Below, in pieces: positions 12,599-29,976 of a DNA stretch of 64,000 nucleotides. Every line of letters begins with the position of its first letter. Position 1 is the first letter of the stretch. The notes beneath the pieces were generated by a model, which was not told the DNA's origin, ran no database searches, and worked only from the letters and a program-made list of their open reading frames with translations. Location of the stretch: contig CAWDVP010000001.1 of the NCBI GenBank assembly GCA_963805945.1, forward strand, positions 64,001-128,000, written 5' to 3'. The position numbers and the translations under genes are program-made. The stretch is from Vulcanimicrobiota bacterium (GTDB lineage: Bacteria; Vulcanimicrobiota; Vulcanimicrobiia; Eremiobacterales; Eremiobacteraceae).

Positions 12599-15500
12599 AT
12601 GAAGCGTTTCGAACCCACACCGGAGCAGCTCGCCGTCATCATGCATCGCGGCAGCCACGCGCTGGTCTTCGCCGGTCCCGGCACCGGCAAGACCGAGACG
12701 CTGGCGCGCCGCTTCGCGTCGCTCGTGGTGGACGACGGCGTCGACCCCAGTGCTATCCTCGTGCTCACCTTCTCGCGCCGCGCGGCGGAGCAGATGCTCG
12801 AACGCGTCGTGCAGCGGTTGCGTGAGCGCACCGGCTCAGAGCTCGCTGTCAGCGAGCTGTTCGTGCGCACCTTCCATGGGTTTTGCGCCCGCCTGCTCGA
12901 CGGTGACGGCCCCCGTTCGCGCGAGCGGGATCTTCTCACGCCGATCAAAGAACGGGTGCTCTGGAAACGCATCGTCGCACGCGCGCCTTTGCAGTCCTTC
13001 GACGACGACGTACGCACGAGCCCGGCCTTCGCCGCGGATGCGCTCAACCTCATCGCGCAGCTCAAGGGCCAAGGCATCAGCCCATCCGAGCTGGCGGCGG
13101 CGCGCGCACAGGACGCGCGCCTCGGCGACATCGCCGAGCTCTACCGGCTCCTCGACGCCGATCGCGTGCGGCTCGGGCTCTCCGACTTCCGCGACCTGGT
13201 CAAGGATGCGCTCGCGGCGCTGGAGCAGCCCGACACACCCGCGGCACGCTGGCTGCGTCAACGCGGTGGTTTTGCGCACATCCTAGTCGACGAGTTCCAG
13301 GACAGCGATCGCCTGCAGCTGCGGCTGCTCGAAACGCTGGCCGGCGACGGCCGCGCGCGCCCGAACCCGACGCCCGAGATATGCTTCGTCGGCGATTTCA
13401 ACCAGTCGATCTACCGCTTTCGCGGCGCGACGCCGGAGAACATCGCTGCTGCACGCACCGCATTCGCTTGCAGCGAACTCACGCTGCGCACGAATCGGCG
13501 CTCTGCCCAGGCGGTGCTCGACGTCGCCAACAAGACGCCGAGACTCGATACGCAGTCACTCACCAAGGCGGAGGATCCCACGCGGCCTGGGTCGGTCCGG
13601 CTCGTGCGAGCGCCATCGCCTGAAGACGAGATCGCGTTCGTCGGCGACAGCGTCGCGCGACACATCGCCGCCGGCACCGCGCCGGGCCAGATCGCGGTGC
13701 TGCTGCGCGCCGGCGAGCCGTACACGAGCCGCATAGCCGCCGCCCTCGGCGATCGCGGCATCGCGATCGCAGCGCGGCCCGCCGCCGGTTTTCTGGAAGA
13801 CCCCGCGGTCGGCGCCGTGCTCACCGCCATGCGCCTCTGCGCAGACGATCAGGACGAAGCGCTGTGGACGCGGTTGCTCGTCAACCCGATCGTCGGATTC
13901 CGCGCGCTCTCCGTCCGCATGGCTTTCGACGCCGCGCGGCGCGCCGGCGTGGCCAACCCTTTCGTGGCGCTCACCGACGCGCCGCCGGCGGGCTTGCGCT
14001 CGTTCGACGATTTCTTGCGGTCGTGGCGTCGCATCGGACAAGCTGCGCCGAAGACGGGCGCCGCGGCGCTGATCGCGATCATCGCGTGCGAGCTCGACCT
14101 GCTCGGGCCGGTGCGCGACGGCAGCGCTCCACCCGGTTGGGACGCGACCTCGTCGCCGGCGCGTTTAAGCGTGCTCGTCGAGGCTGCACGGGACCTCGAG
14201 TCGGTATCGCGCGCGCTCGGCGAGCCGCGCGTCGCGCCGACGCGCTTCGTCGACGAGATCGAGGAGATCGCCGGTTTGCTGAGCGACCCGATCGAACCCC
14301 CGCGCGTCGAAGGTGCGGGCGTGCACCTCATGTCGATCCACGCCGCGAAGGGGCTCGAATTCGACGTCGTGATCGTGCCGCGCGCGATCGACGGCGTGAT
14401 TCCGCAACGCGCCCGCGGCCACGCCTTGCTGCCGCCCGCATCGCTGACGTCGCTGCGCCGGCTTTCGCCGACCCTGTTCGCCGGCGATGAAGACGTCTAC
14501 CAAGAGGAGTGCTCGTTGTGGTACGTGGCGCTCACGCGTGCGCGACGCGAGGTCGTGGTGACGCTGGCGAGCGCCGACGAGGACGACATCGAGCTGCCGC
14601 CGTCCCCCTTCACCCAAGCGATCGAGGACCGCAGCGCGACGCCCGATCGCAAGAAGGGCGCGCTCCGTCGGCCTATTACGGTTATCGAAGCCGTCGCGCC
14701 ATCGCCGCGCACCGACTGGCCGTCCGTGCGCCTCGCGGTCGATCACCTCTCCCCGAAGTCGGTCGAGACGTTTCTCACGTGTCCGCGCCGCTTCTTCTAT
14801 GGCGACGTGCTGCGGCTACAGGGCGAGCGCGACGAGGAGACGACGCTGCTCGGCCTCATCCTGCACGCGACGCTCGCCGCGTTTCACGAGACGGAGCGCG
14901 ATTTCACCTCGGCTCACGACCTCGCGGCGCGCCGCGAGCGCTGGCGCGCCGCGCTGCTCTCCCGACTGGATATCGCGTCGGCCGAAGCGGCCCGCCGCCA
15001 TGGCCTCGCCCTTGATTCCGGCTTCATGCGCTACGAGCTCGCCCTGGCGCGGAACTATGTGGACGAATACGTCGAACTGCTTGCGCGCGAGACGCTCGCG
15101 GCTCCCTTCGAAGTGCTCGCGAGCGAGCTGACGATCGACGCCGAGATCGACGGTGTGCGCTTCACCGGACGGGCCGACCGCGTCGACCGTCTTGCCGCAG
15201 GCGGCTTGGCGATACGCGACTACAAGAGCGGTAAGACCAGGGGCAAGACGGTGAAAGGGGTTCGGGAAGCGCTCGAACGCCTCGACGAGCGCGCGACGCT
15301 CGCCGGAGACGCGCCGTCCGGGCTCCATCTGCAGACGCTGCTCTACGCGCCCGGCGTGGAGGCGAAATTCGACGAGCGCGTCGTTCTCGCTCAATACATT
15401 TATTTCCGCGGCAAAGGCAAGGGAGAAGGCCTCGAGGTCGACTCGATAGCGATCGTCGAGGATGAGTCGGCGGCGAGCGACACGGCGCTGACGAGGTCGG

Positions 15501-15649
15501 AGGTCGAGCGCGCGCAGCGCGACATCGCCGCGGCGATCGCGCATTCGCTCGACGGCGGAATATCCGCGTTCTCGACCGCCTTTGCCGAACAGACCTGCCG
15601 CTTCTGTGACTACGTGCAGGCGTGCCCCGGCGCTATGACGGTCTCATGA
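12599..15649 (+). CDS. UvrD-like SF1 helicase with C-terminal PD-(D/E)xK nuclease (AdnA/AddA-like)
   Basis: AGGAG RBS; AGPGTGKT, VDEFQD, SIYRFRGA, HAAKGLEF, YVALTRA; GRADR..DYKSG; 4 Cys (CPRR, CRFC, C). Confidence 0.9.
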   Translation: MKRFEPTPEQLAVIMHRGSHALVFAGPGTGKTETLARRFASLVVDDGVDPSAILVLTFSRRAAEQMLERVVQRLRERTGSELAVSELFVRTFHGFCARLLDGDGPRSRERDLLTPIKERVLWKRIVARAPLQSFDDDVRTSPAFAADALNLIAQLKGQGISPSELAAARAQDARLGDIAELYRLLDADRVRLGLSDFRDLVKDALAALEQPDTPAARWLRQRGGFAHILVDEFQDSDRLQLRLLETLAGDGRARPNPTPEICFVGDFNQSIYRFRGATPENIAAARTAFACSELTLRTNRRSAQAVLDVANKTPRLDTQSLTKAEDPTRPGSVRLVRAPSPEDEIAFVGDSVARHIAAGTAPGQIAVLLRAGEPYTSRIAAALGDRGIAIAARPAAGFLEDPAVGAVLTAMRLCADDQDEALWTRLLVNPIVGFRALSVRMAFDAARRAGVANPFVALTDAPPAGLRSFDDFLRSWRRIGQAAPKTGAAALIAIIACELDLLGPVRDGSAPPGWDATSSPARLSVLVEAARDLESVSRALGEPRVAPTRFVDEIEEIAGLLSDPIEPPRVEGAGVHLMSIHAAKGLEFDVVIVPRAIDGVIPQRARGHALLPPASLTSLRRLSPTLFAGDEDVYQEECSLWYVALTRARREVVVTLASADEDDIELPPSPFTQAIEDRSATPDRKKGALRRPITVIEAVAPSPRTDWPSVRLAVDHLSPKSVETFLTCPRRFFYGDVLRLQGERDEETTLLGLILHATLAAFHETERDFTSAHDLAARRERWRAALLSRLDIASAEAARRHGLALDSGFMRYELALARNYVDEYVELLARETLAAPFEVLASELTIDAEIDGVRFTGRADRVDRLAAGGLAIRDYKSGKTRGKTVKGVREALERLDERATLAGDAPSGLHLQTLLYAPGVEAKFDERVVLAQYIYFRGKGKGEGLEVDSIAIVEDESAASDTALTRSEVERAQRDIAAAIAHSLDGGISAFSTAFAEQTCRFCDYVQACPGAMTVS

Positions 15650-19814: not shown

Positions 19815-22043
19815 ATGCCGCAAGAACAGCCGTCGGGTACCAACAAGCTGCTGGCCAGCGTCGTGCCGGGGCTGGCGCTCGCCGCGGTCTTCTTCCATCT
19901 CGGCTATGCTGCGGCGAGCGCGCAACCCGCGCTGCACACCGCCCTGCTGCCGCTCGGGCTCGGTTCCTATCTGCTCGGGTTCCTCGCGCTCATCGGGTCG
20001 CTGTCGGCGCGGAGCATCTGGGCGGCGCGCATCCTCCCGGGCCTGTGCGTCGTCGCGTTCATCATCTCGATCGCGATCAATCACCTGGTCAATCCCGCCG
20101 TCGTAAACCCGTCGTATGAGAAATACCAGAGCGATTCGCTCGCCTTCAGCGCCTATTCCGCCCAACTCGTGCTCGAGGGAAGAGACCCGTACACCGAGAG
20201 CATGGCACCGGCGTTCGAACGCTTCCACCTGTCGCCGACGGTCTACACGCCGACGATCGAGGGCGGCACGATCCTCAGCGAACCCTACCCGGCGCTCAGC
20301 TTCTTGATCTACGTCCCTTTCATGGCGATGCACGTGCCGAGCATGATCTGGGTGGATATCGGGTTCCAGATCATCAGCATGCTGCTCATCCTCGTGCTCG
20401 TCCCTGCCCAGACGCGCATCTACTTCGGCCTCTTCTTCTTGCTCATCCCTGAATATCTGAGCTTCGCGGTGAGCTCGGCGACCGACGTGCTGTGGCTGCC
20501 GTTCATGATCGGCGTCGCCGCGACGTGGGACCGGCGCCCGCAGCTGTGCGCCATCCTGCTGGGCCTGGCGTGCGCGATGAAACAGGAGCCGTGGTTCATC
20601 GTGCCGTTCGCGCTCATCTACTGGTGGAAGACGAGCGCTCCGGACGCGGCGCTGGGCACGACGCTGCGACGGCTCGGCTATCTGAGCGCGGCGTTCCTCG
20701 TGCCGAACCTGCCGTTTTTGCTCTGGCATCCGTCGGCGTGGCTCGAGGGCGTCCTTAGCCCGTTGCTGTCTCACGCCGTGCCGCTGGGCAGCGGGCTCAT
20801 CCAGCTCCAGACGAGCGGGCTCATCACGCTGCCGCTGGGCGTCTACACCGCGCTCTGGGTCGCCGCATTCGTCATCTGCGTCGCGGCGTACGCGCGCTGG
20901 ACCGATACGCTGCGCTGGCTGCCCTTCGCGGCGCCGGCGATCGTGTTGTTCTTCAGTCCGCGCTCGCTGCAGAACTACTTCATCTACTGGCCGCTGGTGC
21001 TCGGCGTCTATGCCGCCGTCGCAGCAAGCGAGGCGCCGCCGAAGCTGTACGCGATCCCGTCACCGAGATTGGCCGGCCGCGTCGCGGTGCTGGCGCTCGC
21101 GGGCCTCGCCTCGCTCGTCTTGCTCATCGGCGCCACCGCGGCGGCGGGTGAGCGCATCTCACTCGACGTCAAGCATGTCGGCGTCGACGCCGATACCGGC
21201 CTCGTGAACAGCGTCGTGGTCGACGTCGAAAATCCGACGTCGAACGCCGAGACGCTGCATTTCGCGATCGCCAGTCCGCTCAACTCGCTCGTGTTCTGGC
21301 AGCCCGACCGCTACGAGGTGCCCGCGCACGGATCTGCGACGCTGCGGCTCACGCCGGGCGATCTCGCCGGCGAGGTGCCGCACTCGAAAGACATGGGCTT
21401 CCAAGTGGTCGCCTACGCGCCCCAGGACCGCGTCGCGTCGTATTCGCGCTCGCTGTCGTGGGAAGCGCCGGAGATGCGAGGCGTGCGCAATGGCCGTCTC
21501 GTCTCTGCGGTGAGCAAGTTCCAGACGCTGCCCACACGCGCGCCGTTGGCGTGGAGCGCTGAACCGCAGCCGTTCCTCGACGGGCGCCTGCGCGTCGTGA
21601 GCGAGGGGCCGTTCGGCAACGCGCTCCGCTTCCGCGTTGCGGCGCCGACAGCTTCGGAGTGGGCGATCGTGCAGTGCAGCCAGCCCTTTGTGATGACCGG
21701 TTCGCGCTTCACCTTCTGGCTCAGGCCGCGCCAAGGCGACGCGGGAGCGGCGAGCCCGCCGCAGACCTTCGGCGTCTCGTTCCGCGATGCGCGCGGCCGC
21801 AGAAGCTATTTCGTGGTCGATCCGCGGGTGCGCAGCGTCGCGCGGGTCGCGCGCGGCCGCGACGAGGTCTATCTGCTGCCGGGCCGCGTCGGCTCGTGGA
21901 ACCGCTACACGATCGATCTCGCGCGGCTGCCGGTATTCGCCGAGACGCGCGACAGCCCGCTCTCCGTCACCATCATCGCCGCGGCGCGGCGCGGGGCGCG
22001 CGGCTTTGCGGGCGGCGATTTCGGCGGCATCCTCGAGAACTAG
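19815..22043 (+). CDS. Multi-pass GT-C (GT87-like) glycosyltransferase with extracytoplasmic C-terminal domains
   Basis: GRDPY, YPALSFL, TD, GLACAMKQ.PW, NLPF; about 12 TMs followed by ~290 aa of soluble beta region. Confidence 0.65.
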   Translation: MPQEQPSGTNKLLASVVPGLALAAVFFHLGYAAASAQPALHTALLPLGLGSYLLGFLALIGSLSARSIWAARILPGLCVVAFIISIAINHLVNPAVVNPSYEKYQSDSLAFSAYSAQLVLEGRDPYTESMAPAFERFHLSPTVYTPTIEGGTILSEPYPALSFLIYVPFMAMHVPSMIWVDIGFQIISMLLILVLVPAQTRIYFGLFFLLIPEYLSFAVSSATDVLWLPFMIGVAATWDRRPQLCAILLGLACAMKQEPWFIVPFALIYWWKTSAPDAALGTTLRRLGYLSAAFLVPNLPFLLWHPSAWLEGVLSPLLSHAVPLGSGLIQLQTSGLITLPLGVYTALWVAAFVICVAAYARWTDTLRWLPFAAPAIVLFFSPRSLQNYFIYWPLVLGVYAAVAASEAPPKLYAIPSPRLAGRVAVLALAGLASLVLLIGATAAAGERISLDVKHVGVDADTGLVNSVVVDVENPTSNAETLHFAIASPLNSLVFWQPDRYEVPAHGSATLRLTPGDLAGEVPHSKDMGFQVVAYAPQDRVASYSRSLSWEAPEMRGVRNGRLVSAVSKFQTLPTRAPLAWSAEPQPFLDGRLRVVSEGPFGNALRFRVAAPTASEWAIVQCSQPFVMTGSRFTFWLRPRQGDAGAASPPQTFGVSFRDARGRRSYFVVDPRVRSVARVARGRDEVYLLPGRVGSWNRYTIDLARLPVFAETRDSPLSVTIIAAARRGARGFAGGDFGGILEN

Positions 22044-23053
22044 GCGTTGGCGAGGCGGACGCCGGCGCCGAGCGATTGCAGCTTCGCGTAGGCGATCTCC
22101 CGGCGCATCGGCGCCATGCCGCAGTTGGTCGACGCGATGATCCGCTCGTCCGGCAGATGGCTCCGCGCCACCTCGATCACCGCACGTACGTCGTCGGCCG
22201 ATTCGACGACATCGCTCGCGACGTCGACCACGCCCACCGCGACGTCCTTGCCGCCGGCGAGCGCGAGCACCTCAGGCGGCACGCGCGAACCCGCCAACTC
22301 GATCGAGATCTCGTCGATCGCGCTGGCCGCGAGCAGCGGCATCAGCCGGCCGTACTGGTCCCACGTCGCGCCGAGCGAGCGCTTCCAGTCGACGTTCGCC
22401 TGGATGCCGTAGCCGTAGCACACATGCACCGCGGTGCGGCAGCGCGCGCCCTGCACGCACGCGTCAAGCGCCTCGATGCCCCATTGCGCCGCTTCCTCGA
22501 GATACGCGTTGAAGGCGGGTTCGTCGAGCTGCACGACGTCGACGCCGACCGAGACGAGGCTGGCGATCTCTTCTCGTTGATGAGCCCGGCGAATGCCATC
22601 GCGAGCGACTTGCGATCGCCGTAGTGCGCGTCGTGCACCGTATCCACGATGGTCATCGGACCGGGCAACGTGACCTTCAAGGCGCGCCGCGTGTGGCTGC
22701 GCGCGAAGGCGGCTTCGTCGAGGTGCACCGAGCCATGACGGCGGACTACGCCGGCGATGGTGGGCACGTCGGCCTGATAGCGATCGGCGCGGATCCCGCG
22801 CCGCACCATCTTGGTGAAGTCGACGCCCTCGATATGCTTCGAGAAAGCCGTGGACGAAATGCCTGCGCGATTGCTCGCCGTCGGTGACACAATCGATGCC
22901 GGCGCGTTCCTGCTCGAAGAGCGCCAGCCGCACGGCGTCGCGCTTCGCGTCGGCGAGTTCGGCGCCGTCGAGCCGCCACGCCGGCCAGAGCGTCTCGCTC
23001 TGCGCAAGCCAATGCGGTTTGGGAAGACTGCCGGCGATGGTGGAGCGTATCAC
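22040..23053 (-). CDS. Cobalamin-independent 'core' methionine synthase, MesD-like (two compensating frameshifts near 22838 and 22572)
   Basis: GSLPKP.WLA, DGEQ, LPGPMT, QLDEPAFN, HVCYGYG..AN.DWK, TNCGMAP; Zn ligands H-x-C, E and C. Confidence 0.85.
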   Translation of the reverse strand: MIRSTIAGSLPKPHWLAQSETLWPAWRLDGAELADAKRDAVRLALFEQERAGIDCVTDGEQSRRHFVHGFLEAYRGRRLHQDGAARDPRRSLSGRRAHHRRRSPPSWLGAPRRSRLRAQPHAARLEGHVARSDDHRGYGARRALRRSQVARDGIRRAHQREEIASLVSVGVDVVQLDEPAFNAYLEEAAQWGIEALDACVQGARCRTAVHVCYGYGIQANVDWKRSLGATWDQYGRLMPLLAASAIDEISIELAGSRVPPEVLALAGGKDVAVGVVDVASDVVESADDVRAVIEVARSHLPDERIIASTNCGMAPMRREIAYAKLQSLGAGVRLANA

Positions 23054-23063
23054 CGCGGCGCTG

Positions 23064-23519
23064 CTAGCGGCGTGCCTTGCCTGCGGTCGCCGGATTGCTC
23101 TCCAGCCGCGCCACGTCTTCGTCGTCCGCCGGCTGCGGCCGATCGCGCTGCGCGTCGACGATGCACAGGAAGCCGAACGGCGCATCGCTGTCGTTCACGA
23201 ATTGGTGGAGCGTCATCGGCGAGACGTAGACGTGGTCGAGATTCCGCAGCGCGTGCACGGTGTCGCCGACGATCGCGTAACCCTGGCCGCGGATCACCGT
23301 CACCGAGTGGACGTGCTCGTGCCGTTCCAACCGCGTGTAGCCGTGCGGCTCGACTTCGAAGTAGCGGACCTGGAAGAGCGCCGGCTCGCCGTCGCCGCCC
23401 GAGATGATGTGGCGCGTCACGCCGCGATAGCCGCCGCCCTCGGATTCGCCCTGCGCCTTGTAGCCCGCGGCCTCGACGCCTTCCCACGCGAAGTCAGCCG
23501 CGCGAAATGAATGCTTCAT
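23064..23519 (-). CDS. Cupin resembling 1-methylthio-xylulose-5-phosphate methylsulfurylase
   Basis: W.GV...YK, VTR, RYFEV.P.G...LERH.H.H, HQF, GFLC.V...RD.PQ. ATGA overlap with upstream dehydrogenase. Confidence 0.75.
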   Translation of the reverse strand: MKHSFRAADFAWEGVEAAGYKAQGESEGGGYRGVTRHIISGGDGEPALFQVRYFEVEPHGYTRLERHEHVHSVTVIRGQGYAIVGDTVHALRNLDHVYVSPMTLHQFVNDSDAPFGFLCIVDAQRDRPQPADDEDVARLESNPATAGKARR

Positions 23520-24574
23520 GATCTCCCCGGATAGACGATGACCTTGAGCGCGTCGCCGGCGTCGGCGACCAAGCGATACGCCTCCGCGATCGAGTCGAGG
23601 CCGAAGCGGTGCGTGACCAGGCCCGCGAGCGGCAGGCCGTCGGCGAGCAGGGTGAGCGCCTCGCGCGTGTCGTTCGGACCCGCGGAATAGCTCGTGACGA
23701 CGCTGACGTCTTTGAAGTAGAAATCGTGGACCGGCAGCGGCCAGTATTCGGTGGCCTGCGTCGGCGTGAAGAGCACGATCGTGCCGCCGGGCGCGACGCA
23801 TTGCGCCGCCGCGCGCATCGCCTCTACCGAACCCGGACCCACGATGACGACGTCCGCGCCCTCGCCGTCGGTCGCGGCGAGCACCTGCTCGTGGAGCGGC
23901 GCGGCATCGACGTCGAACGCGAGATGCGCGCCGTGCTCGCGCGACCGTTCGAGGCGGCCGCGCACGCGGTCCGCGCTCATGATCAGTTCGGCGCCGCGGA
24001 AGCGCGCGAGCGCCACATGGAGCATGCCCATGATGCCGAGGCCGATGACGAGCACGCGATCGCCCGCACGCAGGTGAGCACGGCGCGCCGATTTCACCAC
24101 GGTCGCGAGCGGCTCGACGAGCGTCGCCCGATCGTCGTCGAGCGAGTCGGGGATGCGCAGCACGTCGGCGCGCACGTTCTCAGCGGAGACGATGGCGTAT
24201 TGCGCCATGCCGCCCGGCCGCAGCCTGGTCTTGCGCCACGTCTCGCACTGCACGTAGTCCTTGCGCTTGCAGCGCCGGCAGGTCATGCACGGCGCATGGT
24301 GATGGACGAAGACACGCTCGCCGGGCGCGAAAGGCTGGCCGCCGGTCGGCGCGGCGCCCTCGCCGCACGCCTCGACGATAGCGACGGGCTCGTGGCCGAG
24401 CACGAACGGCGCCTTGCGGTCGTTGTACCAGCCCATGACCTCGCCCGGGCAGATGCCGCACGCGGTGATGCGCACGAGCAACTCGCCGGGTTGCAGCGCG
24501 GGCAGCTCGACGTCGCGCACGGCGATGCCGCCTCCGCGTTCGTAGACTGCGGCCCGAGTCGTCGTTGGTTGCAT
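23516..24574 (-). CDS. Zn-dependent MDR dehydrogenase (sorbitol/threonine DH-like)
   Basis: GIC, LGHE, CxxCxxC..C, EPLA, GLGIMG. Confidence 0.9.
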   Translation of the reverse strand: MQPTTTRAAVYERGGGIAVRDVELPALQPGELLVRITACGICPGEVMGWYNDRKAPFVLGHEPVAIVEACGEGAAPTGGQPFAPGERVFVHHHAPCMTCRRCKRKDYVQCETWRKTRLRPGGMAQYAIVSAENVRADVLRIPDSLDDDRATLVEPLATVVKSARRAHLRAGDRVLVIGLGIMGMLHVALARFRGAELIMSADRVRGRLERSREHGAHLAFDVDAAPLHEQVLAATDGEGADVVIVGPGSVEAMRAAAQCVAPGGTIVLFTPTQATEYWPLPVHDFYFKDVSVVTSYSAGPNDTREALTLLADGLPLAGLVTHRFGLDSIAEAYRLVADAGDALKVIVYPGRS

Positions 24575-24639
24575 TGGAAGTCCCGAGGTTCGCGCTCGAC
24601 GTTCGCTATCCCACCTTGGCTATGAGACTTTTGCAGCCC

Positions 24640-26028
24640 TCACCCGTTCAGGACCTCCAACGGTGCGGTATAGAAATCGCTCTTGTAGGCACGGCGGTAT
24701 ATGACGAGCGGGATGATGCCGAGGACGAGCAAGCCCACCGTGACCGCATCGGCGCGCCATCCGGCGGTGATGAGCTGCGCCACCACCACGATCCAGAGAA
24801 AGACGGCGGCGCCGACCGGCCATATCCCCTTGAGCACGAGCGCCCGGCGATCGGTGGCGAAAGAGCGCCGATAGTAGCGTGCGCACGCGATCGCCGACAG
24901 CCCGTAATAGAACGCGATGTAGATGCCGATGGCGTTGACGGATTCGTTGAGGACCTGTGAGATGCTCGCGCTTGCGGCTGCGGCCGCGAACAGCGCCAGC
25001 GAGATCACTCCCATCACGATGCTGCCGAACCACGGCGTCTGATAGCGCGGATTGAGCTCGGCGAAGCGCTCGCTGATCACGCGGTCGCGGCTCATCGACA
25101 TCAGCGTGCGGCTCACCACGAGCAGCGACGCCTCGAGCGTGCCGATCGTGCTCACGATGACGACGATCACGGCGATATCGCCCCAGGGTCTCGGCAAGAT
25201 CGCATTCGCGAAGACGTCGAGCAGGTTGGAGCCAGCATCTTGGATGGCGTGCACCGGCAGGACCATCTGGACGCTCACTTGCACGCCGATGAACAGCGCC
25301 AGCAGGATGAACATGCCCTGCAGGCCTGCGATGCCCGGCGCCCGGCTATGGTCGACGGTCTCTTCGGCCAGATTGGCGGTGACATCCCAGCCCCAGAAGT
25401 AGAACAATGCGACGAGCGCGCCCGCCATGACGGCGGCGAAGCCGCCCGCGGGATATGGCGAGAACCACGCAAGGGTGAAGGCGTTCGCGTGCCCTGCGGT
25501 GGCGGAGTGGACGATGCCGATGACAGCCAGCGCCGCGAGGCCGGCGATCTCGATGCCGGTCACGATCCGCTGGAAGTATGCGGTCGTGCGGATGCCGACT
25601 AGCACGACGACGTTGACGAGCACGAACCACACCGCGCCGACAGCGGTCACGGCCGCGATGTCGTTCGACAGGCGCGGCGCGAAGAGATCGAGCGTCGCCG
25701 ACGCCGCTGGCAGCGAGCCGGCGACCATGAAGATCGTATTGGCGACGAGGATCGACCAGCCGGCCAGAAATCCGAGATCTGGACTGAGCGCGCGGCCCAC
25801 CCACGCGTAGCCCGCACCGGCATCGGTTCGCCACGCGTTGAGATAGAAGTAGGCGATGGCGAGTCCGAACATCGCGACCGCGCCGAGCAGCAGCGCTCCC
25901 GGGCCGTACAGCCCGACGGCTGCGATGAGCGCGCCGGTGCTCACGGCGACGGAATTCGCCGGCGCTGTGCCGGCCACGGCGATCAAGACCGAGTCCAGCC
26001 GCGAGAGCGCGTTACGACGGAGCTCCAT
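24640..26028 (-). CDS. APC family amino acid/polyamine permease
   Basis: 12 TMs; GTAPA, GWD..ANLAEET, QTPW. Confidence 0.9.
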   Translation of the reverse strand: MELRRNALSRLDSVLIAVAGTAPANSVAVSTGALIAAVGLYGPGALLLGAVAMFGLAIAYFYLNAWRTDAGAGYAWVGRALSPDLGFLAGWSILVANTIFMVAGSLPAASATLDLFAPRLSNDIAAVTAVGAVWFVLVNVVVLVGIRTTAYFQRIVTGIEIAGLAALAVIGIVHSATAGHANAFTLAWFSPYPAGGFAAVMAGALVALFYFWGWDVTANLAEETVDHSRAPGIAGLQGMFILLALFIGVQVSVQMVLPVHAIQDAGSNLLDVFANAILPRPWGDIAVIVVIVSTIGTLEASLLVVSRTLMSMSRDRVISERFAELNPRYQTPWFGSIVMGVISLALFAAAAASASISQVLNESVNAIGIYIAFYYGLSAIACARYYRRSFATDRRALVLKGIWPVGAAVFLWIVVVAQLITAGWRADAVTVGLLVLGIIPLVIYRRAYKSDFYTAPLEVLNG

Positions 26029-26029
26029 G

Positions 26030-27340
26030 CTAGCTCATCGCATCCAAGAAGCGGTACCATGCGCCGGCTGCGGGCACGAGCCACGAAGAGCTCATGCGCA
26101 GCCCCGCGGGCGACACCGGAAGCGGACGCATCAGCGGATCTGCAGCTGCGCCTGCACGACCGGCGCCGTCACCGCCCGAGATCGATGCGGCAAGCCGCGC
26201 GCCCAGGTGGGTCGCCAGCGCAACCCCGTGGCCTGCGTACCCGACGGCATAGTGGATCCCGTCAAGCACGCCGGCGTGCGGCAGCATGTCCAAAGTGAAA
26301 TCGATCGTGCCGCCCCATGCGTATTCCACCGCGGCGTCGCGCAGTTGCGGGAACACGGCGACCATGTCTTTGCGCAAGATGTCGACGCTTTCCGACAACG
26401 CGCGTTCGGATTCGGGGACGAACGACGCGCGCCCGCCGAAGAGCACGCGATCGTCAGGCGTAAGCCGGAAATAGTGGAGGAAGCGCTTGGAGTCGTACAT
26501 CATCCTGTTCCGCGGCGAGAGCTCGCGCGCGCGCGTCGTACCCAGCGGCTCCGTTGCGATGACATACGAGCCGATAGGCACGATGCGCCGCGTCAGCCAC
26601 GGCGATTCGGCGCCGGTGTAGGCGCCGGTCGCGACGATGACCTCGTTAGCCGCGAGGTCGCCGCGTCCGGTCGCCACGGTGAATCCGGCGGCGCCCGTGT
26701 TGCGCCGGGCGATGCGCGTCACTGGCGTGTTCTCGAGGACTGCGGCGCCCGAGCGACGGGCCGCTTGCGCTAGACCGTACACGAGTTTCGCTGGGTTGAC
26801 GCTTGCGCTTGCGTCGTCGACCATGCCGCCGTGATAGGCGCTCGATCCGACCTCATCATGCAGGTCCGCAGGTGGCACGAGCCGGACGTGCCGTCCGAAT
26901 GCCTGCGCCAGGAGCGCCGCTTCTCGCTCGAACTGCGCGAAGTGAGACCGCTTTGACGCGAGCGCGAGATGGCCGCAGCGGGCGAAATCGCACGCGATCC
27001 GTTCCTCGCCCACGAGCCGCTCGACGAAGTCGATCGCTTCGATCGACGACGCGTCAAGGCGACGCGCGGCGTCGAGCCCGTAGCGCGCGATGAGCTCGTG
27101 CGGTGAGAGCTTGAGCCCGCTCAACACCATGCCGCCGTTGCGCGAGCTCGCTCCCCAACCGACTTCGTGCGTCTCCAGCACGGTCACGCGAGCGCCGAGC
27201 TTGGTAAGCGTCAGCGCGGCGGAGAGCCCGGTCAGGCCGGCGCCCACGATCGCGACGTCCGCCGCCGCCGGCAGGTCGACGGGGCCGCGCGTGTCTCGCC
27301 CGGCCTCGACCGTCTCTCGCCAGTAGGCGAGCCGCTTCAA
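26030..27340 (-). CDS. FAD-dependent oxidoreductase (DAO family, PuuB-like)
   Basis: GAGLTG, GASSRNGG, YAWGG, GYAGHG. Confidence 0.9.
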   Translation of the reverse strand: MKRLAYWRETVEAGRDTRGPVDLPAAADVAIVGAGLTGLSAALTLTKLGARVTVLETHEVGWGASSRNGGMVLSGLKLSPHELIARYGLDAARRLDASSIEAIDFVERLVGEERIACDFARCGHLALASKRSHFAQFEREAALLAQAFGRHVRLVPPADLHDEVGSSAYHGGMVDDASASVNPAKLVYGLAQAARRSGAAVLENTPVTRIARRNTGAAGFTVATGRGDLAANEVIVATGAYTGAESPWLTRRIVPIGSYVIATEPLGTTRARELSPRNRMMYDSKRFLHYFRLTPDDRVLFGGRASFVPESERALSESVDILRKDMVAVFPQLRDAAVEYAWGGTIDFTLDMLPHAGVLDGIHYAVGYAGHGVALATHLGARLAASISGGDGAGRAGAAADPLMRPLPVSPAGLRMSSSWLVPAAGAWYRFLDAMS

Positions 27341-27377
27341 GCCCGGAGCCGCAGCAGCGTGGCGATCACGTGCGGGG

Positions 27378-28007
27378 TCATACGCGGTACAATCCGCGCC
27401 ACCTCGGCGCGAGCACGAAGAACAACTGTGAGAGCACGATCGCCGCGATGCTCCAGTAGGTGTTGAAGACGCAGAGCGACGCGCTCAACGCATAGAGCAC
27501 CTGGCCGGTGATGATACGGCGTTCGATTGCCCGGCCCACGTCGACAGCCGAATCGTCCTTGAGCAGCCCCGCGCGGGTCGCATACCGCCAACTGACCCAG
27601 AGCGTGCCCCCGAGCAAGACGATGTTGAGCCAATAGATGACCACCGCGAGGCGATAGGTGATGAACTCCGCCAGCAGCGCGGTGGAGAACGGCATCAGCG
27701 CGACCACGAGCAGGAAGGCGATCTGCATCCACGTGAGGTCGCGATTGCTGCGGGCGAAGCTGCTGAGCTGCGTCTGCTGGCCGACCCAGAAGATGCCCAG
27801 CGTCATGAAGCTCATGAAATATGCGAGCAGCCGCGGCGACAGCACGAGCAGGGCGCTCAGCAGGTCGCCTTCGCTATGGATCGCCGTGCTCACCGGCACG
27901 CGCAGGTCGAGCACGAGCAATGTCATCGCGATGGCGAAGACGCCGTCGCTCAACGCAGAAAGCCGCTCCAGGCTTTGACCTGCGACCACGTTGTACAGCG
28001 GTTTCAT
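27378..28007 (-). CDS. TMEM175 family K+ channel (DUF1211)
   Basis: RL.ALSDGVFAIAMTLLVLDL signature; 6 TMs. Confidence 0.9.
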   Translation of the reverse strand: MKPLYNVVAGQSLERLSALSDGVFAIAMTLLVLDLRVPVSTAIHSEGDLLSALLVLSPRLLAYFMSFMTLGIFWVGQQTQLSSFARSNRDLTWMQIAFLLVVALMPFSTALLAEFITYRLAVVIYWLNIVLLGGTLWVSWRYATRAGLLKDDSAVDVGRAIERRIITGQVLYALSASLCVFNTYWSIAAIVLSQLFFVLAPRWRGLYRV

Positions 28008-29044
28008 ACCCACTCCGGCGCGCCCGGCTCGGGGATAAGCGCGTACTTGAAGCCGCGACGGTGGTCGAGGTCATCGAAGACGTCCGGCAGATTCGAGAGC
28101 GGCACGATCCCGGACACCAGCGGCCGCAACGCGAGTCGCCCGGTGACGAGCAGGTCACGCGCCTCGCGCACGTCGGCCGGGGTGAAATGAAAGGCACCGA
28201 GACAGGTCAGCTCGTCGTAATGCAGGCGCGTCGCGTCCAGCGGCACCTCGCTGCCTGACGGCAGGCCGCCGAAGAACAGCGTGCGGCCGCCCGGACGGGT
28301 GAGCGCGAGCGCCTGGCGCCAGGCGTCCGGCGACCCCGCGCATTCGATGGCGGCGGCATAGCGCTGCGACAAAGGCACGCCGCCGGCCGCGCGCGCATCG
28401 ATCGTCTCGTCGGCGCCGAGCGCGCGCGCGATCGCGAGACGTTCCTCGCTGCGCGCGATCACGGTCGCGCGCACGCCCGCATGGCGTGCGTAGAGCAGGT
28501 GCAACAGGCCGATCGTGCCGGCGCCGATGATCGCGACGTCGCGCGGCGTCGGACGCTCGGCGTTGGCGCGGCGCAGCGCGCTCCAGCCGTGCACGATGCA
28601 GGACAGCGGCTCCAGGAACGCCGCTTCGATGTAGCTCAGCCCGACCGGCTTCTTGAAGACGTTGCGCCGCACGATCTTCCGCGGCAGCACGATGTGGTCC
28701 GCATACGCCCCGAGCGCGACGTCGTCGAAGATATGCTCGCACAAGTTCTCGTAACCGTCGCGGCAGCGCGCGCACTGCTCGCACGGCGCGGTCTGCACCC
28801 ACATGATCGCGTCGCCCGGCTTGAAGCCGGTCACGTCGGGGCCCACCGCCACGATGTCGCCGGACGCCTCGTGTCCGAACGGACCGTAGGCGAGCTTCGG
28901 GTGGCCGCGGCGATACGTCTTCAGATCCGTGCCGCACGTGAGAGCCGCGCGCACGCGCACGAGGACTTCACCCGCTCCGGGCGCGGGCGTCGGCGCTTCG
29001 TGCCATGCAAGCGTCCTGGGCGCGGTCAGGCGCGCTTGGCGCAT
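28004..29044 (-). CDS. Zn-dependent MDR dehydrogenase
   Basis: TCGTD, GHE, CEQCARC..C, LEPLSC, GAGTIG. Confidence 0.9.
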   Translation of the reverse strand: MRQARLTAPRTLAWHEAPTPAPGAGEVLVRVRAALTCGTDLKTYRRGHPKLAYGPFGHEASGDIVAVGPDVTGFKPGDAIMWVQTAPCEQCARCRDGYENLCEHIFDDVALGAYADHIVLPRKIVRRNVFKKPVGLSYIEAAFLEPLSCIVHGWSALRRANAERPTPRDVAIIGAGTIGLLHLLYARHAGVRATVIARSEERLAIARALGADETIDARAAGGVPLSQRYAAAIECAGSPDAWRQALALTRPGGRTLFFGGLPSGSEVPLDATRLHYDELTCLGAFHFTPADVREARDLLVTGRLALRPLVSGIVPLSNLPDVFDDLDHRRGFKYALIPEPGAPEWV

Positions 29045-29048
29045 CCGC

Positions 29049-29940
29049 TCACTTGATGACCTGCACGCCGGCGGCGCGTTCGTACAGCTCCGAGACGACG
29101 CTGTAGTCGAGTTTGCCGCCGCCTTCGGCCGAGGCTTGCAGGTAGAGCTGGCCCGCAAGCGCCGCCTCGATCATCGGCACGTGCATCTGCTTGGCCGCGT
29201 CGAGCGCGGCGTTGAGGTCCTTGCGCAGCAGGTCGAGCGCGAAGCCGCCCTCGTGGCTACCTTTGAACCACGTGTTCGGCAACCACTTGTCGAGGATGTA
29301 GTTCGAGCCGGTGGCGGTGCCGATCACCTTGCGCAGCAGGTCGATGTCGGCACCCGACTTCTTGGCGAAGGTGAGCGCCTCCACATCGGCGATCATCACG
29401 ATGGCGATGATGATCTGATTCACGAGTTTGAAGGTCTCACCCATGCCCGCGGGGCCGACGAGAGTCGGCGTGCCCATCGCGCGGAACACCTGCTCGCATG
29501 CGGCGAACGTCGCCGCGTCGCCGCCCGCCATGATCGTGAGCTCGCCCGTTGCGGCGCGCGCGGGCCCACCGGAGACCGGGGCGTCGAGCATCTGGATGCC
29601 GCCGCTGCGCAGGCGTTCGTGGAACCCGCGCGAGGCGACCGGCGAGATCGTCGACATGTCGATGACGTAGCCGCCGCTGCGCATACCTGCGGCGACGCCC
29701 CGCTCGCCGAAGAGCGCTTCCTCTACCTGCGGGCTGTCGGGCACCATGGTGACGACTGCATCGCTGGCGGCGGCGACCGCGGCCGGATCCGCCGCTTCGA
29801 CCGCGCCGGCTTTTGATGAGACGCTCGACGCCCGCGCGCGAGCGGTGCGCGCACACGCGCAAGGCGAAACCCGCCCGCAACAGCGACGCGCCCATGGGTT
29901 CGCCCATCGCGCCGATACCGATGAGGCCGATGTTCTTCAT
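29049..29940 (-). CDS. Beta-hydroxyacid dehydrogenase (GarR/GlxR/3-hydroxyisobutyrate DH family), frameshift near 29811
   Basis: GLIGIGAMG, DMSTI, DAPVSGG, KLVNQ, KDL; extra base in a 4-nt homopolymer. Confidence 0.9.
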
Positions 29941-29976
29941 CCGGATAGAATGGGCCGCGAACGGGCTGAGCTCCTG

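Follow-up and report, generated by a model that had tools for sequence, protein, structure and literature searches.

Genes of the locus

The window, i.e., the whole stretch of 64,000 nucleotides analyzed here, carries on its minus strand genes for a cupin (23064..23519) and two medium-chain zinc dehydrogenases, ZnDH1 (23516..24574) and ZnDH2 (28004..29044), together with the ORF of a core, folate-domain-less methionine synthase (22040..23053), all identified by Pfam search. The tight coupling noted in the preliminary description is confirmed: ZnDH1 ends and the cupin begins within a shared ATGA, with GGGGAG just before it, and after the cupin stop there are 10 bases before the GTG that opens the methionine synthase ORF.

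The cupin (Pfam Cupin_2) matches three PDB entries in a sequence search, 3ibm (1.7e-36), 3jzv, which is Rru_A2000 of Rhodospirillum rubrum (3e-29), and 3kgz, of the R. palustris type (4e-26). The motifs RYFEV, LERHEHVH, HQF, GFLC and RDRPQ are all present, as listed previously; the remaining listed motif was trivially miscounted and reads W-x-G-V-x4-Y-K rather than W.GV..YK. Residues H67, H69, H71, H105, C119, R125 and D126 are invariant in 19 homologues, and neither the cysteine of GFLC nor the His motif varies among the aligned homologues. JGI gives a 60%-identical homologue the name "S-methyl-1-thioxylulose 5-phosphate methylthiotransferase". Judged by its sequence, the cupin is a true homologue of the R. 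rubrum MTXu-5P methylsulfurylase, and its earlier assignment to that family stands.

Both dehydrogenases consist of ADH_N and ADH_zinc_N domains. In ZnDH1, C42/H61/E62, four structural cysteines and Asp202 are conserved among 50 aligned sequences; this Asp, at the end of β2, is invariant. In ZnDH2, the catalytic C37/H58/E59 and the four structural-zinc cysteines are at least 95% conserved (26 aligned sequences), and the end of β2 has Ala or Gly followed by Arg, with no acidic residue. Thus, ZnDH2 looks like an NADP-type enzyme and ZnDH1 like an NAD-type one. For each, identity to solved structures of medium-chain dehydrogenases (MDRs) reaches only about 30%, and database names are generic.

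The methionine synthase ORF (Pfam Meth_synt_2) is of the PRK09121 type. It scores 325.7 bits over two stretches against this NCBIfam model, the cut-off being 392, while an intact orthologue (L007:10461-11474) scores 454.8 bits. The ORF shifts frame twice, near 22838 and near 22576 (frames -1/-2/-1), and remains open because the shifts cancel out, its central ~90 residues being translated out of frame; at these sites a related strain's contigs are shorter by one base (22838) and by two bases (22576). The gene was earlier taken as a pathway member, but it adjoins the cupin in no more than 4 of the 80 cupin loci. It is a lineage-specific neighbour, found with the cupin in the closest relatives only, and lies outside the conserved module.

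Directly upstream of ZnDH2 lies the gene of a HIBADH-type (β-hydroxyacid) dehydrogenase (29049..29946, minus strand; Pfam NAD_binding_2, matched from profile position 62, and NAD_binding_11). Its reading frame shifts somewhere between about 29750 and 29815: in a tblastn search with the intact orthologue from L032, residues 70-300 fall in one frame and residues 5-48 in another. The gene is a conserved neighbour only inside the window's own phylum, where the cluster occurs in 13 loci. Between ZnDH2 and ZnDH1 stand three more minus-strand genes assigned by Pfam (24640..28013), encoding an APC amino-acid permease (24640-26028), a DAO-family FAD oxidoreductase (26030-27340) and a TMEM175-like channel (27378-28013). 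These three are outside the conserved module; in most relatives (e.g., L008, L009 and L014) ZnDH2 and ZnDH1 directly adjoin each other.

Conservation of the cupin/dehydrogenase linkage

A neighbourhood survey of 80 cupin-bearing genomes from several phyla bears out the proposed linkage. ZnDH1 adjoins the cupin in 53 of the 80 loci and both dehydrogenases do so in 27, while a ZnDH2 orthologue is present in 69 of the genomes. Linked loci occur in Eremiobacterota, Bacillota/Limnochordales, Binatota, Acidobacteriota and Nitrospirota, and the ZnDH2-ZnDH1 pair remains adjacent in genomes where the cupin lies elsewhere (G033, G040). Given this conservation, the arrangement is far beyond chance.

The wider settings vary. 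The ZnDH1-cupin pair of Binatia comes after the hopanoid gene hpnH (383 bits) and is followed by a transaldolase-PGI fusion and rpiA. In family f2 of the window's phylum, the dehydrogenase pair is part of a tightly packed riboflavin operon, where ribE and ribBA flank it and mtnA comes immediately after ribH; this setting could point to ribulose-5-phosphate chemistry. Unlinked ZnDH2 copies were seen among housekeeping genes, once at murG-murC and once in the recA region. In the survey of cupin loci, no gene for a kinase, transporter or regulator was found to accompany the module from phylum to phylum.

Pathway genes and the absence of Dxs

The window belongs to a 2.3-Mb metagenome-assembled genome (MAG) that is 82% complete. 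This genome encodes MtnP (300 bits, above the cut-off), MtnA (in three frameshifted pieces), Dxr (385 bits), a spermidine-synthase-like protein and the E1 alpha and beta subunits of a pyruvate/2-oxoacid dehydrogenase. The window had been said to lack a RuBisCO-like protein (RLP), and a search for the RuBisCO family (PF00016) gave no match anywhere in the genome, window included. A class II aldolase of the mtnB/Ald2 family was found neither here nor in nine other genomes of its family. HMG-CoA reductase was likewise not found in the genome, nor was Dxs, whose best match, at 76.6 bits, turned out to be a 2-oxoacid dehydrogenase E1. Dxr, the cupin and ZnDH2 are all present in each of four congeneric genomes (completeness 96-98%), in which neither Dxs nor the class II aldolase was found.

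This pattern extends through the phylum. Of 151 genomes sampled from it, 147 have Dxr and 102 have Dxs; ZnDH2 occurs in 44 of the 49 genomes without Dxs versus 47 of the 102 with it. ZnDH2 without the cupin is found in 16 Dxs-less genomes and in no Dxs-positive one, and Dxs is present in 46 of the 51 genomes where ZnDH2 and the cupin are both missing. In nine cupin-bearing genomes of the phylum, ZnDH2 was not detected at E<=1e-40. The presence of mtnA in 144 of the 151 genomes, with or without the module, makes its co-occurrence with the module say little.

Across phyla, only 24 of the 80 cupin genomes have Dxs. In the remaining 56, ZnDH1 lies beside the cupin in 43, ZnDH2 is present in 50, and no RLP-like gene was found. 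Dxr is present in all five Dxs-less genomes tested from other phyla, and both dehydrogenases in all five genomes tested that lack both the cupin and Dxs. G060, a Chloracidobacterium MAG, carries the cupin, both dehydrogenases and Dxr, with Dxs not found, and cultured C. validum has the cupin. According to excerpts of published surveys, dxs is absent from six cultured Acidobacteria, one of them Chloracidobacterium thermophilum (PMC5462960), and Dxs alone is missing in 181 of 4,400 representative species, 172 of them without explanation (PMC10663253).

It should be noted that many of the surveyed genomes are incomplete MAGs, and that related genomes are non-independent, only about 4-10 events of Dxs loss being needed on the cupin tree; the Dxs pattern shows up repeatedly, in no fewer than five phylum-level clades of that tree. 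Two anti-correlations anticipated earlier hold in part. An RLP-like gene was found in none of the 56 Dxs-less cupin genomes, but Nitrospirota genomes carry the pair together with Dxs and also an RLP-like gene. Analogously, within family f2 a class II aldolase is present in 18 of 18 cupin-less versus 13 of 53 cupin-bearing genomes, but the module and such aldolases coexist in Binatia and Acidobacteriota. Since the pair occurs alongside Dxs in 47 genomes of the phylum and alongside an RLP-like gene in Nitrospirota, it is no simple replacement for either.

Proposed route to DXP

MtnP and MtnA, encoded elsewhere in the genome, would convert 5'-methylthioadenosine (MTA) to 5-methylthio-D-ribulose-1-phosphate (MTRu-1P) and, through their reported promiscuity, 5'-deoxyadenosine to 5-deoxy-D-ribulose-1-phosphate. 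ZnDH2 is proposed to reduce the C2 keto group of either sugar with NADPH, giving a D-arabinitol-type polyol phosphate, and ZnDH1 to oxidize with NAD+ the C4 hydroxyl, next to the methylthio or methyl carbon. The apparent cofactor types fit reduction followed by oxidation. The carbonyl would thereby be shifted with C3 untouched, so that MTRu-1P would yield MTXu-5P (1-methylthio-D-xylulose-5-phosphate), the 2-ketose for the cupin, and the 5-deoxy sugar would yield DXP directly. The cupin and a thiol would then remove the methylthio group, releasing DXP and, for the resynthesis of methionine, either a methyl disulfide or methanethiol. The stereochemistry of such a redox isomerization, put forward in the preliminary description, was rederived and is sound. 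The stoichiometry is one S-adenosylmethionine (SAM) per DXP, and a main route would need a large flux of MTA or 5'-deoxyadenosine.

On the strength of homology and gene context, we lean toward the view that the dehydrogenase pair and the cupin turn the SAM-derived leftover sugar into DXP in this way; the substrates, step order, cofactor use and link to Dxs loss are our inferences. The presence of Dxr together with the absence of Dxs would suggest a main source of DXP in this genome rather than a side salvage, an extension that we regard as possible but somewhat doubtful. If the route is real, bacteria without the usual first isoprenoid enzyme would obtain DXP from a SAM by-product.

Alternative interpretations

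The same chemistry, from MTA to DXP and methanethiol, might serve salvage or detoxification only, Dxs being replaced otherwise, for example by a side activity of the pyruvate/2-oxoacid dehydrogenase E1. The module does occur alongside Dxs (in 47 of 102 Dxs-positive genomes of the phylum and 24 of the 80 cupin genomes), much as the R. rubrum shunt runs beside Dxs in excerpts of PMC5893883/PMC4334135; one SAM per DXP is costly for a main route; and E1 genes are at hand in this genome, aceE mutations being cited as able to bypass dxs in E. coli (excerpts of PMC5462960 and PMC10663253). Nevertheless, this explanation, in our opinion unlikely, accounts neither for ZnDH2 retention in 44 of 49 Dxs-less genomes nor for the restriction of cupin-less ZnDH2 to such genomes (16 versus 0), a pattern for which near-universal E1 genes cannot be responsible.

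The f2 operon, with the pair between ribE and ribBA, counts against the proposed route and raises another option, namely that the dehydrogenases, with or without the cupin, make DXP from central pentose phosphates, e.g., by reducing 1-deoxy-2,3-diketopentose-5-phosphate formed by RibB-like or elimination chemistry on ribulose-5-phosphate or ribulose-1,5-bisphosphate. The flux problem would then vanish. The transaldolase-PGI fusion and rpiA of the Binatia loci, the retention of both dehydrogenases in cupin-less genomes (5/5 tested), and mutated RibB and YajO among known dxs bypasses (excerpts of PMC10663253) agree with such an origin. We consider it improbable: the cupin is closely homologous to a 1-methylthio-ketose-specific enzyme, two dehydrogenases of opposite cofactor signature suit redox isomerization better than a single reduction, and the f2 operon also holds mtnA right after ribH. 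An ordinary polyol or sugar-acid catabolic cluster, in which the cupin is a sugar isomerase, the dehydrogenases act on an unrelated polyol and the Dxs association reflects shared ancestry, appears very unlikely. The nearest characterized relative of the cupin is the methylsulfurylase, no conserved kinase, transporter or regulator accompanies the module across phyla, unlinked ZnDH2 copies sit in housekeeping settings (murG-murC, recA region), and the Dxs pattern is repeated in at least five phylum-level clades. Consistent with a catabolic cluster are the best models of the dehydrogenases (threonine, inosose, galactitol-1-phosphate and sorbitol dehydrogenases, all far below cut-off), the HIBADH-type third dehydrogenase upstream, joined in some relatives by a solute-binding protein, and the non-independence of relatives.

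Comparison with known systems

The closest parallel is the MTA-isoprenoid shunt of R. rubrum and Rhodopseudomonas palustris, which, as described in excerpts of PMC5893883 and PMC4334135, comprises MtnP, MtnA, the DeepYkr RuBisCO-like protein and the cupin methylsulfurylase, with glutathione as the attacking thiol. The proposed route shares its MtnP and MtnA start, its homologous cupin end (3e-29 to Rru_A2000) and, as far as these excerpts describe them, its end products, DXP and a methylthio group for methionine. The middle step differs: the 1,3-proton transfer by RLP, which according to the same excerpts yields a 3:1 xylulose/ribulose mixture, would be replaced by two unrelated NAD(P)-dependent dehydrogenases acting via a polyol phosphate, with C3 fixed. 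Moreover, no RuBisCO-family gene was found here or in the 56 Dxs-less cupin genomes, and the route would here operate without Dxs, whereas the R. rubrum shunt is described as running beside it.

Redox isomerizations by medium-chain dehydrogenases are represented by D-arabitol-phosphate dehydrogenase of Enterococcus avium and by the fungal xylose reductase/xylitol dehydrogenase pair. Common features are an MDR fold that binds both a catalytic and a structural zinc, conversion of a ketose or aldose to another ketose through a polyol and, in the fungal type of pairing, an NADPH-type reductase with an NAD-type dehydrogenase. The parallel is one of fold and reaction type, and the substrates proposed here differ in bearing a 5-methylthio or 5-deoxy group.

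The DHAP shunt (MtnP/MtnK, MtnA and the class II aldolase Ald2/DrdA) handles MTA and 5'-deoxyadenosine, according to excerpts of PMC6079011 and PMC10986504, and so resembles the proposed route in its first two steps and its dual use. However, its aldolase was not found here or in nine other genomes of the family, and carbon would flow to DXP instead of to DHAP and an aldehyde.

Known bypasses of Dxs in E. coli, in excerpts of PMC10663253 and PMC5462960, are suppressor mutations in aceE and ribB and overexpression of yajO. Previous cases are laboratory suppressors or unexplained absences, whereas the gene set described here is natural and conserved, and its presence tracks the absence of Dxs (Dxs in 24 of 80 cupin genomes; ZnDH2 in 44 of 49 Dxs-less genomes of the window's phylum), which is new.

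Composition and conservation of the module

Comparative evidence supports the central interpretation of this finding, in which two zinc dehydrogenases and a cupin would jointly serve DXP formation. All three are encoded on the minus strand, as are their Pfam-assigned neighbors in the window. In the direction of transcription, a truncated HIBADH-type dehydrogenase (29049–29747) is followed by the second zinc dehydrogenase, ZnDH2 (28004–29044), a TMEM175-like channel protein (27378–28013), a DAO-type FAD oxidoreductase (26030–27340), an APC amino-acid permease (24640–26028), the zinc dehydrogenase ZnDH1 (ADH_N + ADH_zinc_N; 23516–24574), the cupin (Cupin_2; 23064–23519), and a Met synthase (Meth_synt_2; 22040–23053). 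The window is a variant of the module, with three unrelated genes (24640–28013) inserted between ZnDH2 and ZnDH1, whereas these two are adjacent in most relatives. The tight coupling of ZnDH1 and the cupin claimed in the preliminary description is borne out: the ZnDH1 stop overlaps the cupin start as ATGA, with GGGGAG before the overlap, and the gap between the cupin and the Met synthase ORF is indeed 10 bases. The top match of the FAD oxidoreductase (26030–27340) is L-pipecolate oxidase, at a score under the cut-off.

A cupin scan with one genome per species gave 224 relatives, of which the best 80 loci were kept; the neighbors of the cupin were scored by tblastn with the window's proteins. 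Among these best 80 of 224 loci, ZnDH1 adjoins the cupin in 53, ZnDH2 in 28, and both in 27, several of the misses being due to short contigs. Whole-genome search of the 80 cupin genomes finds one ZnDH2 orthologue (42–78% identity) in 69, and of the genomes in which ZnDH1 is not beside the cupin, 5 of 5 tested have it elsewhere. In two of these five, G033 and G040, ZnDH1 directly follows ZnDH2. Further conserved partners, such as a kinase, a transporter, or a regulator, were sought by clustering all ORFs lying up to 7 kb away from the cupin at the 80 loci, and none is common across phyla; therefore, the module is defined as ZnDH2-ZnDH1-cupin. Six loci labeled Binatus, proteobacterium, Enterobacteriaceae, or Thermodesulfobacteriota (L008, L026, L029, L031, L079, and L062) group inside Eremiobacterota or Binatia clades by cupin tree and gene order, and the taxon labels of the underlying MAGs look unreliable.

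The Met synthase, which had been counted as a member of the pathway, is outside the conserved module. It lies beside the cupin in 4 of the best 80 of 224 loci, all of them closest relatives. Moreover, its ORF is open solely through two compensating frameshifts, overlooked in the preliminary description. Residues 71–162 of the intact orthologue from a relative (L007) match frame -2 of the window (22845–22570, 79% identity), while both flanks match frame -1. The indel sites were checked on small-share contigs of soil and freshwater DNA, where a related strain, about 95% identical, has 1 base fewer at 22838 and 2 bases fewer at 22576. The HIBADH-like gene is likewise split over two frames, with the shift within 29750–29815, and mtnA (contig C8 of the window's genome, 41244–42205) is spread over three (171 + 157 + 44 bits). 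Since the related-strain contigs differ by 1 and 2 bases, and since mtnA and the HIBADH-like gene are also shifted, the frameshifts in these three genes look like assembly indels rather than signs of pseudogenes. Because of them, the window's Met synthase matches the NCBIfam core methionine synthase model PRK09121 (cut-off 392 bits) in two stretches with 325.7 bits, whereas the intact L007 orthologue scores 454.8 bits. MesX (DUF1852, PF08908), the partner protein in the MesD/MesX system, has no match in the window's genome, and the control was likewise silent in all 14 genomes.

Cupin and dehydrogenase families

The proposed membership of the cupin in the MTXu-5P methylsulfurylase family stands, with homology along the whole protein, and all of the motifs listed for it previously are found. 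In a phmmer search of the PDB, the cupin matches 3ibm (E 1.7e-36), 3jzv (E 3e-29 over residues 8–146), and 3kgz (E 4e-26), while the next matches, generic cupins, reach only 1e-8. Structure 3jzv is Rru_A2000, the MTXu-5P methylsulfurylase of R. rubrum. Residues H67, H69, H71, H105, C119, R125, and D126 are invariant among 19 homologues, and the His motif and the GFLC and RDxP segments also align with 3jzv. The JGI name for a 60%-identical homologue is S-methyl-1-thioxylulose 5-phosphate methylthiotransferase. According to two papers on the shunt (PMC5893883, PMC4334135), glutathione attacks the methylthio group in the methylsulfurylase reaction, yielding DXP and S-methylthio-glutathione, and the substrate is provided by an RLP. 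The function predicted for the cupin is thiol-dependent release of DXP from 1-methylthio-D-xylulose-5-P. Three short cupin homologues (P0146, P0180, and P0186) are called "ribulose-bisphosphate carboxylase large chain" by JGI, a label that was probably carried over from annotation of the RLP-cupin pathway.

ZnDH1 and ZnDH2 are medium-chain zinc dehydrogenases of the polyol/threonine dehydrogenase type, with ADH_N and ADH_zinc_N domains, a Cys-His-Glu set, a four-Cys site, and a GxGxxG motif. Both the catalytic residues (C42/H61/E62 in ZnDH1; C37/H58/E59 in ZnDH2) and the structural-zinc cysteines (C96/99/102/110 and C88/91/94/102, respectively) are conserved. Neither protein exceeds an NCBIfam equivalog cut-off: the best score of ZnDH1 against Tdh, IolM, GatD, and others is 137.7 bits vs 458 (Tdh), and that of ZnDH2 is 120.8 bits vs 380. 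The search for closer characterized relatives yielded generic MDRs only in the PDB (approximately 1e-31 to 1e-37) and generic names only in the ESM Atlas. Cofactor signatures were read from alignments of 49 of the 53 adjacent ZnDH1 genes and 25 of the 28 adjacent ZnDH2 genes, taken at ≥200 bits and ≥300 aligned residues. The end of strand β2 carries Asp in all 47 distinct ZnDH1 sequences (NAD type). In ZnDH2, this place is occupied by Ala or Gly followed by Arg, with no acidic residue (NADP type); one sequence deviates by a His, and three have the Arg shifted by one position toward the C terminus.

The module and the missing Dxs

The result added by this analysis is the link of the module to missing Dxs. 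The window's genome (G000; 2.3 Mb, 8 contigs, 82% complete) contains the two salvage enzymes expected for the shunt, MtnA and MtnP (C2:236768–237487; 300 bits, cut-off 274.85, with NF005876 also passed), as well as Dxr (C6:17207–18370; 385 bits, cut-off 315.7). The lack of an RLP, first noticed in the window, extends to the whole 2.3 Mb of this 82% complete genome, in which the RuBisCO family (PF00016) has no match; the same is true of 68 of the 80 cupin genomes. Neither a class II aldolase of the mtnB/Ald2 family nor HMG-CoA reductase was found in the window's genome, and the best match there to Dxs (TIGR00204, cut-off 466 bits) scores 76.6 bits. The weak Dxs-like matches proved to be 2-oxoacid dehydrogenase E1 subunits, the 76.6-bit one being an E1 beta beside E1 alpha and E2. 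Thus, with no aldolase, RLP, or Dxs found, the window's genome has an MtnA product without a known consumer and a Dxr without a known supplier. MTA could be supplied through the product of a spermidine-synthase-like gene (C2:615021–615548) or through an Orn/Lys/Arg decarboxylase (C2:243472–244566, or 14472–15566 of locus L096), which is encoded some 6 kb from mtnP.

The phylum of the window was sampled with 151 genomes, the window's own among them; the cupin is present in 84, ZnDH2 in 91, class II aldolase in 67, Dxs in 102, and Dxr in 147 (120 of 120 high-quality genomes). Co-occurrence with mtnA is uninformative as a test of the module, as 144 of the 151 genomes have mtnA with or without it. 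Dxs is missing from 49 genomes, 44 of which have ZnDH2 and 28 the cupin; the five exceptions for ZnDH2 include two genomes at 64–67% completeness. Sixteen Dxs-less genomes vs 0 Dxs-positive ones have ZnDH2 but no cupin, and an unlinked ZnDH1 orthologue, 40–45% identical, was found in 5 of 5 cupin-less Dxs-less genomes tested. Neither ZnDH2 nor the cupin is found in 51 genomes, 46 of which have Dxs. The window's genus is represented by four further genomes (96–98% complete); each lacks Dxs and carries Dxr, the cupin, and ZnDH2. In another family of the phylum (f2), class II aldolase is present in 18 of 18 cupin-less vs 13 of 53 cupin-bearing genomes.

Across phyla, Dxs was found in 24 of the 80 cupin genomes (best 80 of 224). 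The 56 Dxs-less ones take in all Binatia, including several closed chromosomes, Armatimonadota, Blastocatellia/Chloracidobacterium, and most Limnochordales and Eremiobacterota. Of these 56, 43 have ZnDH1 as a neighbor of the cupin, 50 have ZnDH2, 5 of 5 tested have Dxr, and none has an RLP-like gene. Dxs is found in every one of the seven genomes that do carry an RLP-like gene. A strict anti-correlation between RLP and the dehydrogenase pair was rejected, as a ZnDH2 orthologue is present in 6 of these 7 genomes; in the one tested (G033), ZnDH1 adjoins ZnDH2. On the cupin tree, the Dxs-less state requires 10 changes, 4 of them forced by well-supported branches; therefore, the pattern is not one inherited event, although the independent events are still few. 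The counts take in unpublished genomes (G005, G011, and G028 of the 80; G208 of the phylum sample), and no claim is based on these alone. A Chloracidobacterium MAG without Dxs encodes Dxr, the cupin, and the two dehydrogenases, and the cultured C. validum has the cupin. Six cultured Acidobacteria without dxs, among them Chloracidobacterium thermophilum, are named in an earlier study (PMC5462960), and another counts 181 of 4,400 species lacking Dxs only, 172 of them unexplained (PMC10663253).

A putative route to DXP

The carbonyl of MTRu-1P, at C2, would have to move to the former C4, beside the methylthio carbon, to give the substrate of the cupin. Reduction at C2 and oxidation at C4 would accomplish this shift through a D-arabinitol-type phosphate while leaving C3 alone, and after renumbering of the chain the C3 hydroxyl of D-ribulose would become that of D-xylulose. 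Our own derivation from Fischer projections agrees with the stereochemistry proposed in the preliminary description. An NADPH-dependent reductase (ZnDH2) acting before an NAD+-dependent dehydrogenase (ZnDH1) would give the isomerization its direction; the ATGA coupling fits ZnDH1 as the maker of the cupin's substrate. The fungal xylose reductase/xylitol dehydrogenase pair likewise combines an NADPH reductase with a subsequent NAD+ dehydrogenase, and D-arabitol-phosphate dehydrogenase offers a chemical parallel to the reactions proposed for the ZnDH pair. The same two steps would convert 5-deoxyribulose-1-P into DXP itself, making the cupin unnecessary, which fits the Dxs-less genomes that have both dehydrogenases and no cupin. 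On sequence evidence, we consider it somewhat probable that the module turns MtnA products into DXP in this manner. A role as principal supplier of DXP in bacteria without Dxs is more doubtful. Equally tentative is the broadest reading, in which ZnDH2 and ZnDH1, joined by the cupin on the sulfur branch, might form the natural Dxs-independent entry into the MEP pathway across five or more phyla (Eremiobacterota, Binatota, Armatimonadota, Acidobacteriota, and Limnochordia-type Bacillota), with all DXP coming from SAM ribose. Isoprenoids would then trace to that ribose, as might thiamin and pyridoxal phosphate, through a C5 deoxygenation cycle, ATP → SAM → MTA or 5'-deoxyadenosine → ribulose-1-P derivative → DXP, in which adenine and methionine would be recycled carriers.

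Gene context bears on these readings in different ways. In Binatia, ZnDH1-cupin is directly preceded by hpnH, a hopanoid gene for adenosyl-hopene transferase (383 bits; L083 7941–8939 and 15 other loci), and is followed by a transaldolase-PGI fusion gene and rpiA. Unlinked ZnDH2 genes are found among housekeeping genes. In f2, overlapping genes are ordered ribD-ribE-ZnDH2-ZnDH1-ribBA-ribH-mtnA-holA-purB (L087, G181:C7:183000–195000; L089; L090), and the window's genome keeps ribBA-ribH ... mtnA-purB (L095), with the dehydrogenase pair now at the cupin instead. A riboflavin operon running into mtnA supports a link of the pair to mtnA but equally allows one to ribulose-5-P chemistry. The f2 cupin adjoins, convergently, genes for a two-domain rhodanese and a glutaredoxin, also beside an EVE-domain gene (L092 4799–6489; L093 6371–8042), this glutaredoxin being a possible reductant of the methyl-thiol mixed disulfide formed by the methylsulfurylase.

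Several observations weigh against the DXP route. The dehydrogenases have no close characterized relative, the function of the pair being predicted from sequence comparison. Many genomes with the module also have Dxs, and in Nitrospirota both Dxs and an RLP-like gene accompany it. In nine cupin genomes of the phylum, the search for ZnDH2 at the chosen threshold gave no match. If nothing else supplied DXP, each molecule made by this route would consume one SAM, and a large flux to MTA or 5'-deoxyadenosine would be required, for which there is no candidate source. A moonlighting 2-oxoacid dehydrogenase E1 could instead be the true Dxs replacement, as one paper proposes for Acidobacteria (PMC5462960).

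Significance and relation to known systems

Why some bacteria have the MEP enzymes complete but for Dxs is an open question, which the link to Dxs makes directly testable, and the module is a concrete three-gene candidate for DXP supply in such organisms. A full-text literature search, with most subscription journals outside it, returned no description of the dehydrogenase-based step or of the ZnDH2-ZnDH1-cupin set. If true, the proposed route would provide a non-homologous alternative to the RuBisCO-like isomerase step, tie the salvage of SAM by-products to essential biosynthesis, alter the annotation of isoprenoid capacity in widespread soil phyla, and offer a Dxs-free DXP route usable in engineering. 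Should the salvage reading alone hold, the module would still be a new variant of methionine/MTA salvage in many uncultured lineages.

The known system for comparison is the MTA-isoprenoid shunt. It differs in its isomerase, a DeepYkr RLP acting as MTRu-1P 1,3-isomerase, which was not found in the window's genome; the likeness lies in MtnP, MtnA, a homologous cupin, and Dxr, the MEP entry for DXP, all of which this genome encodes.
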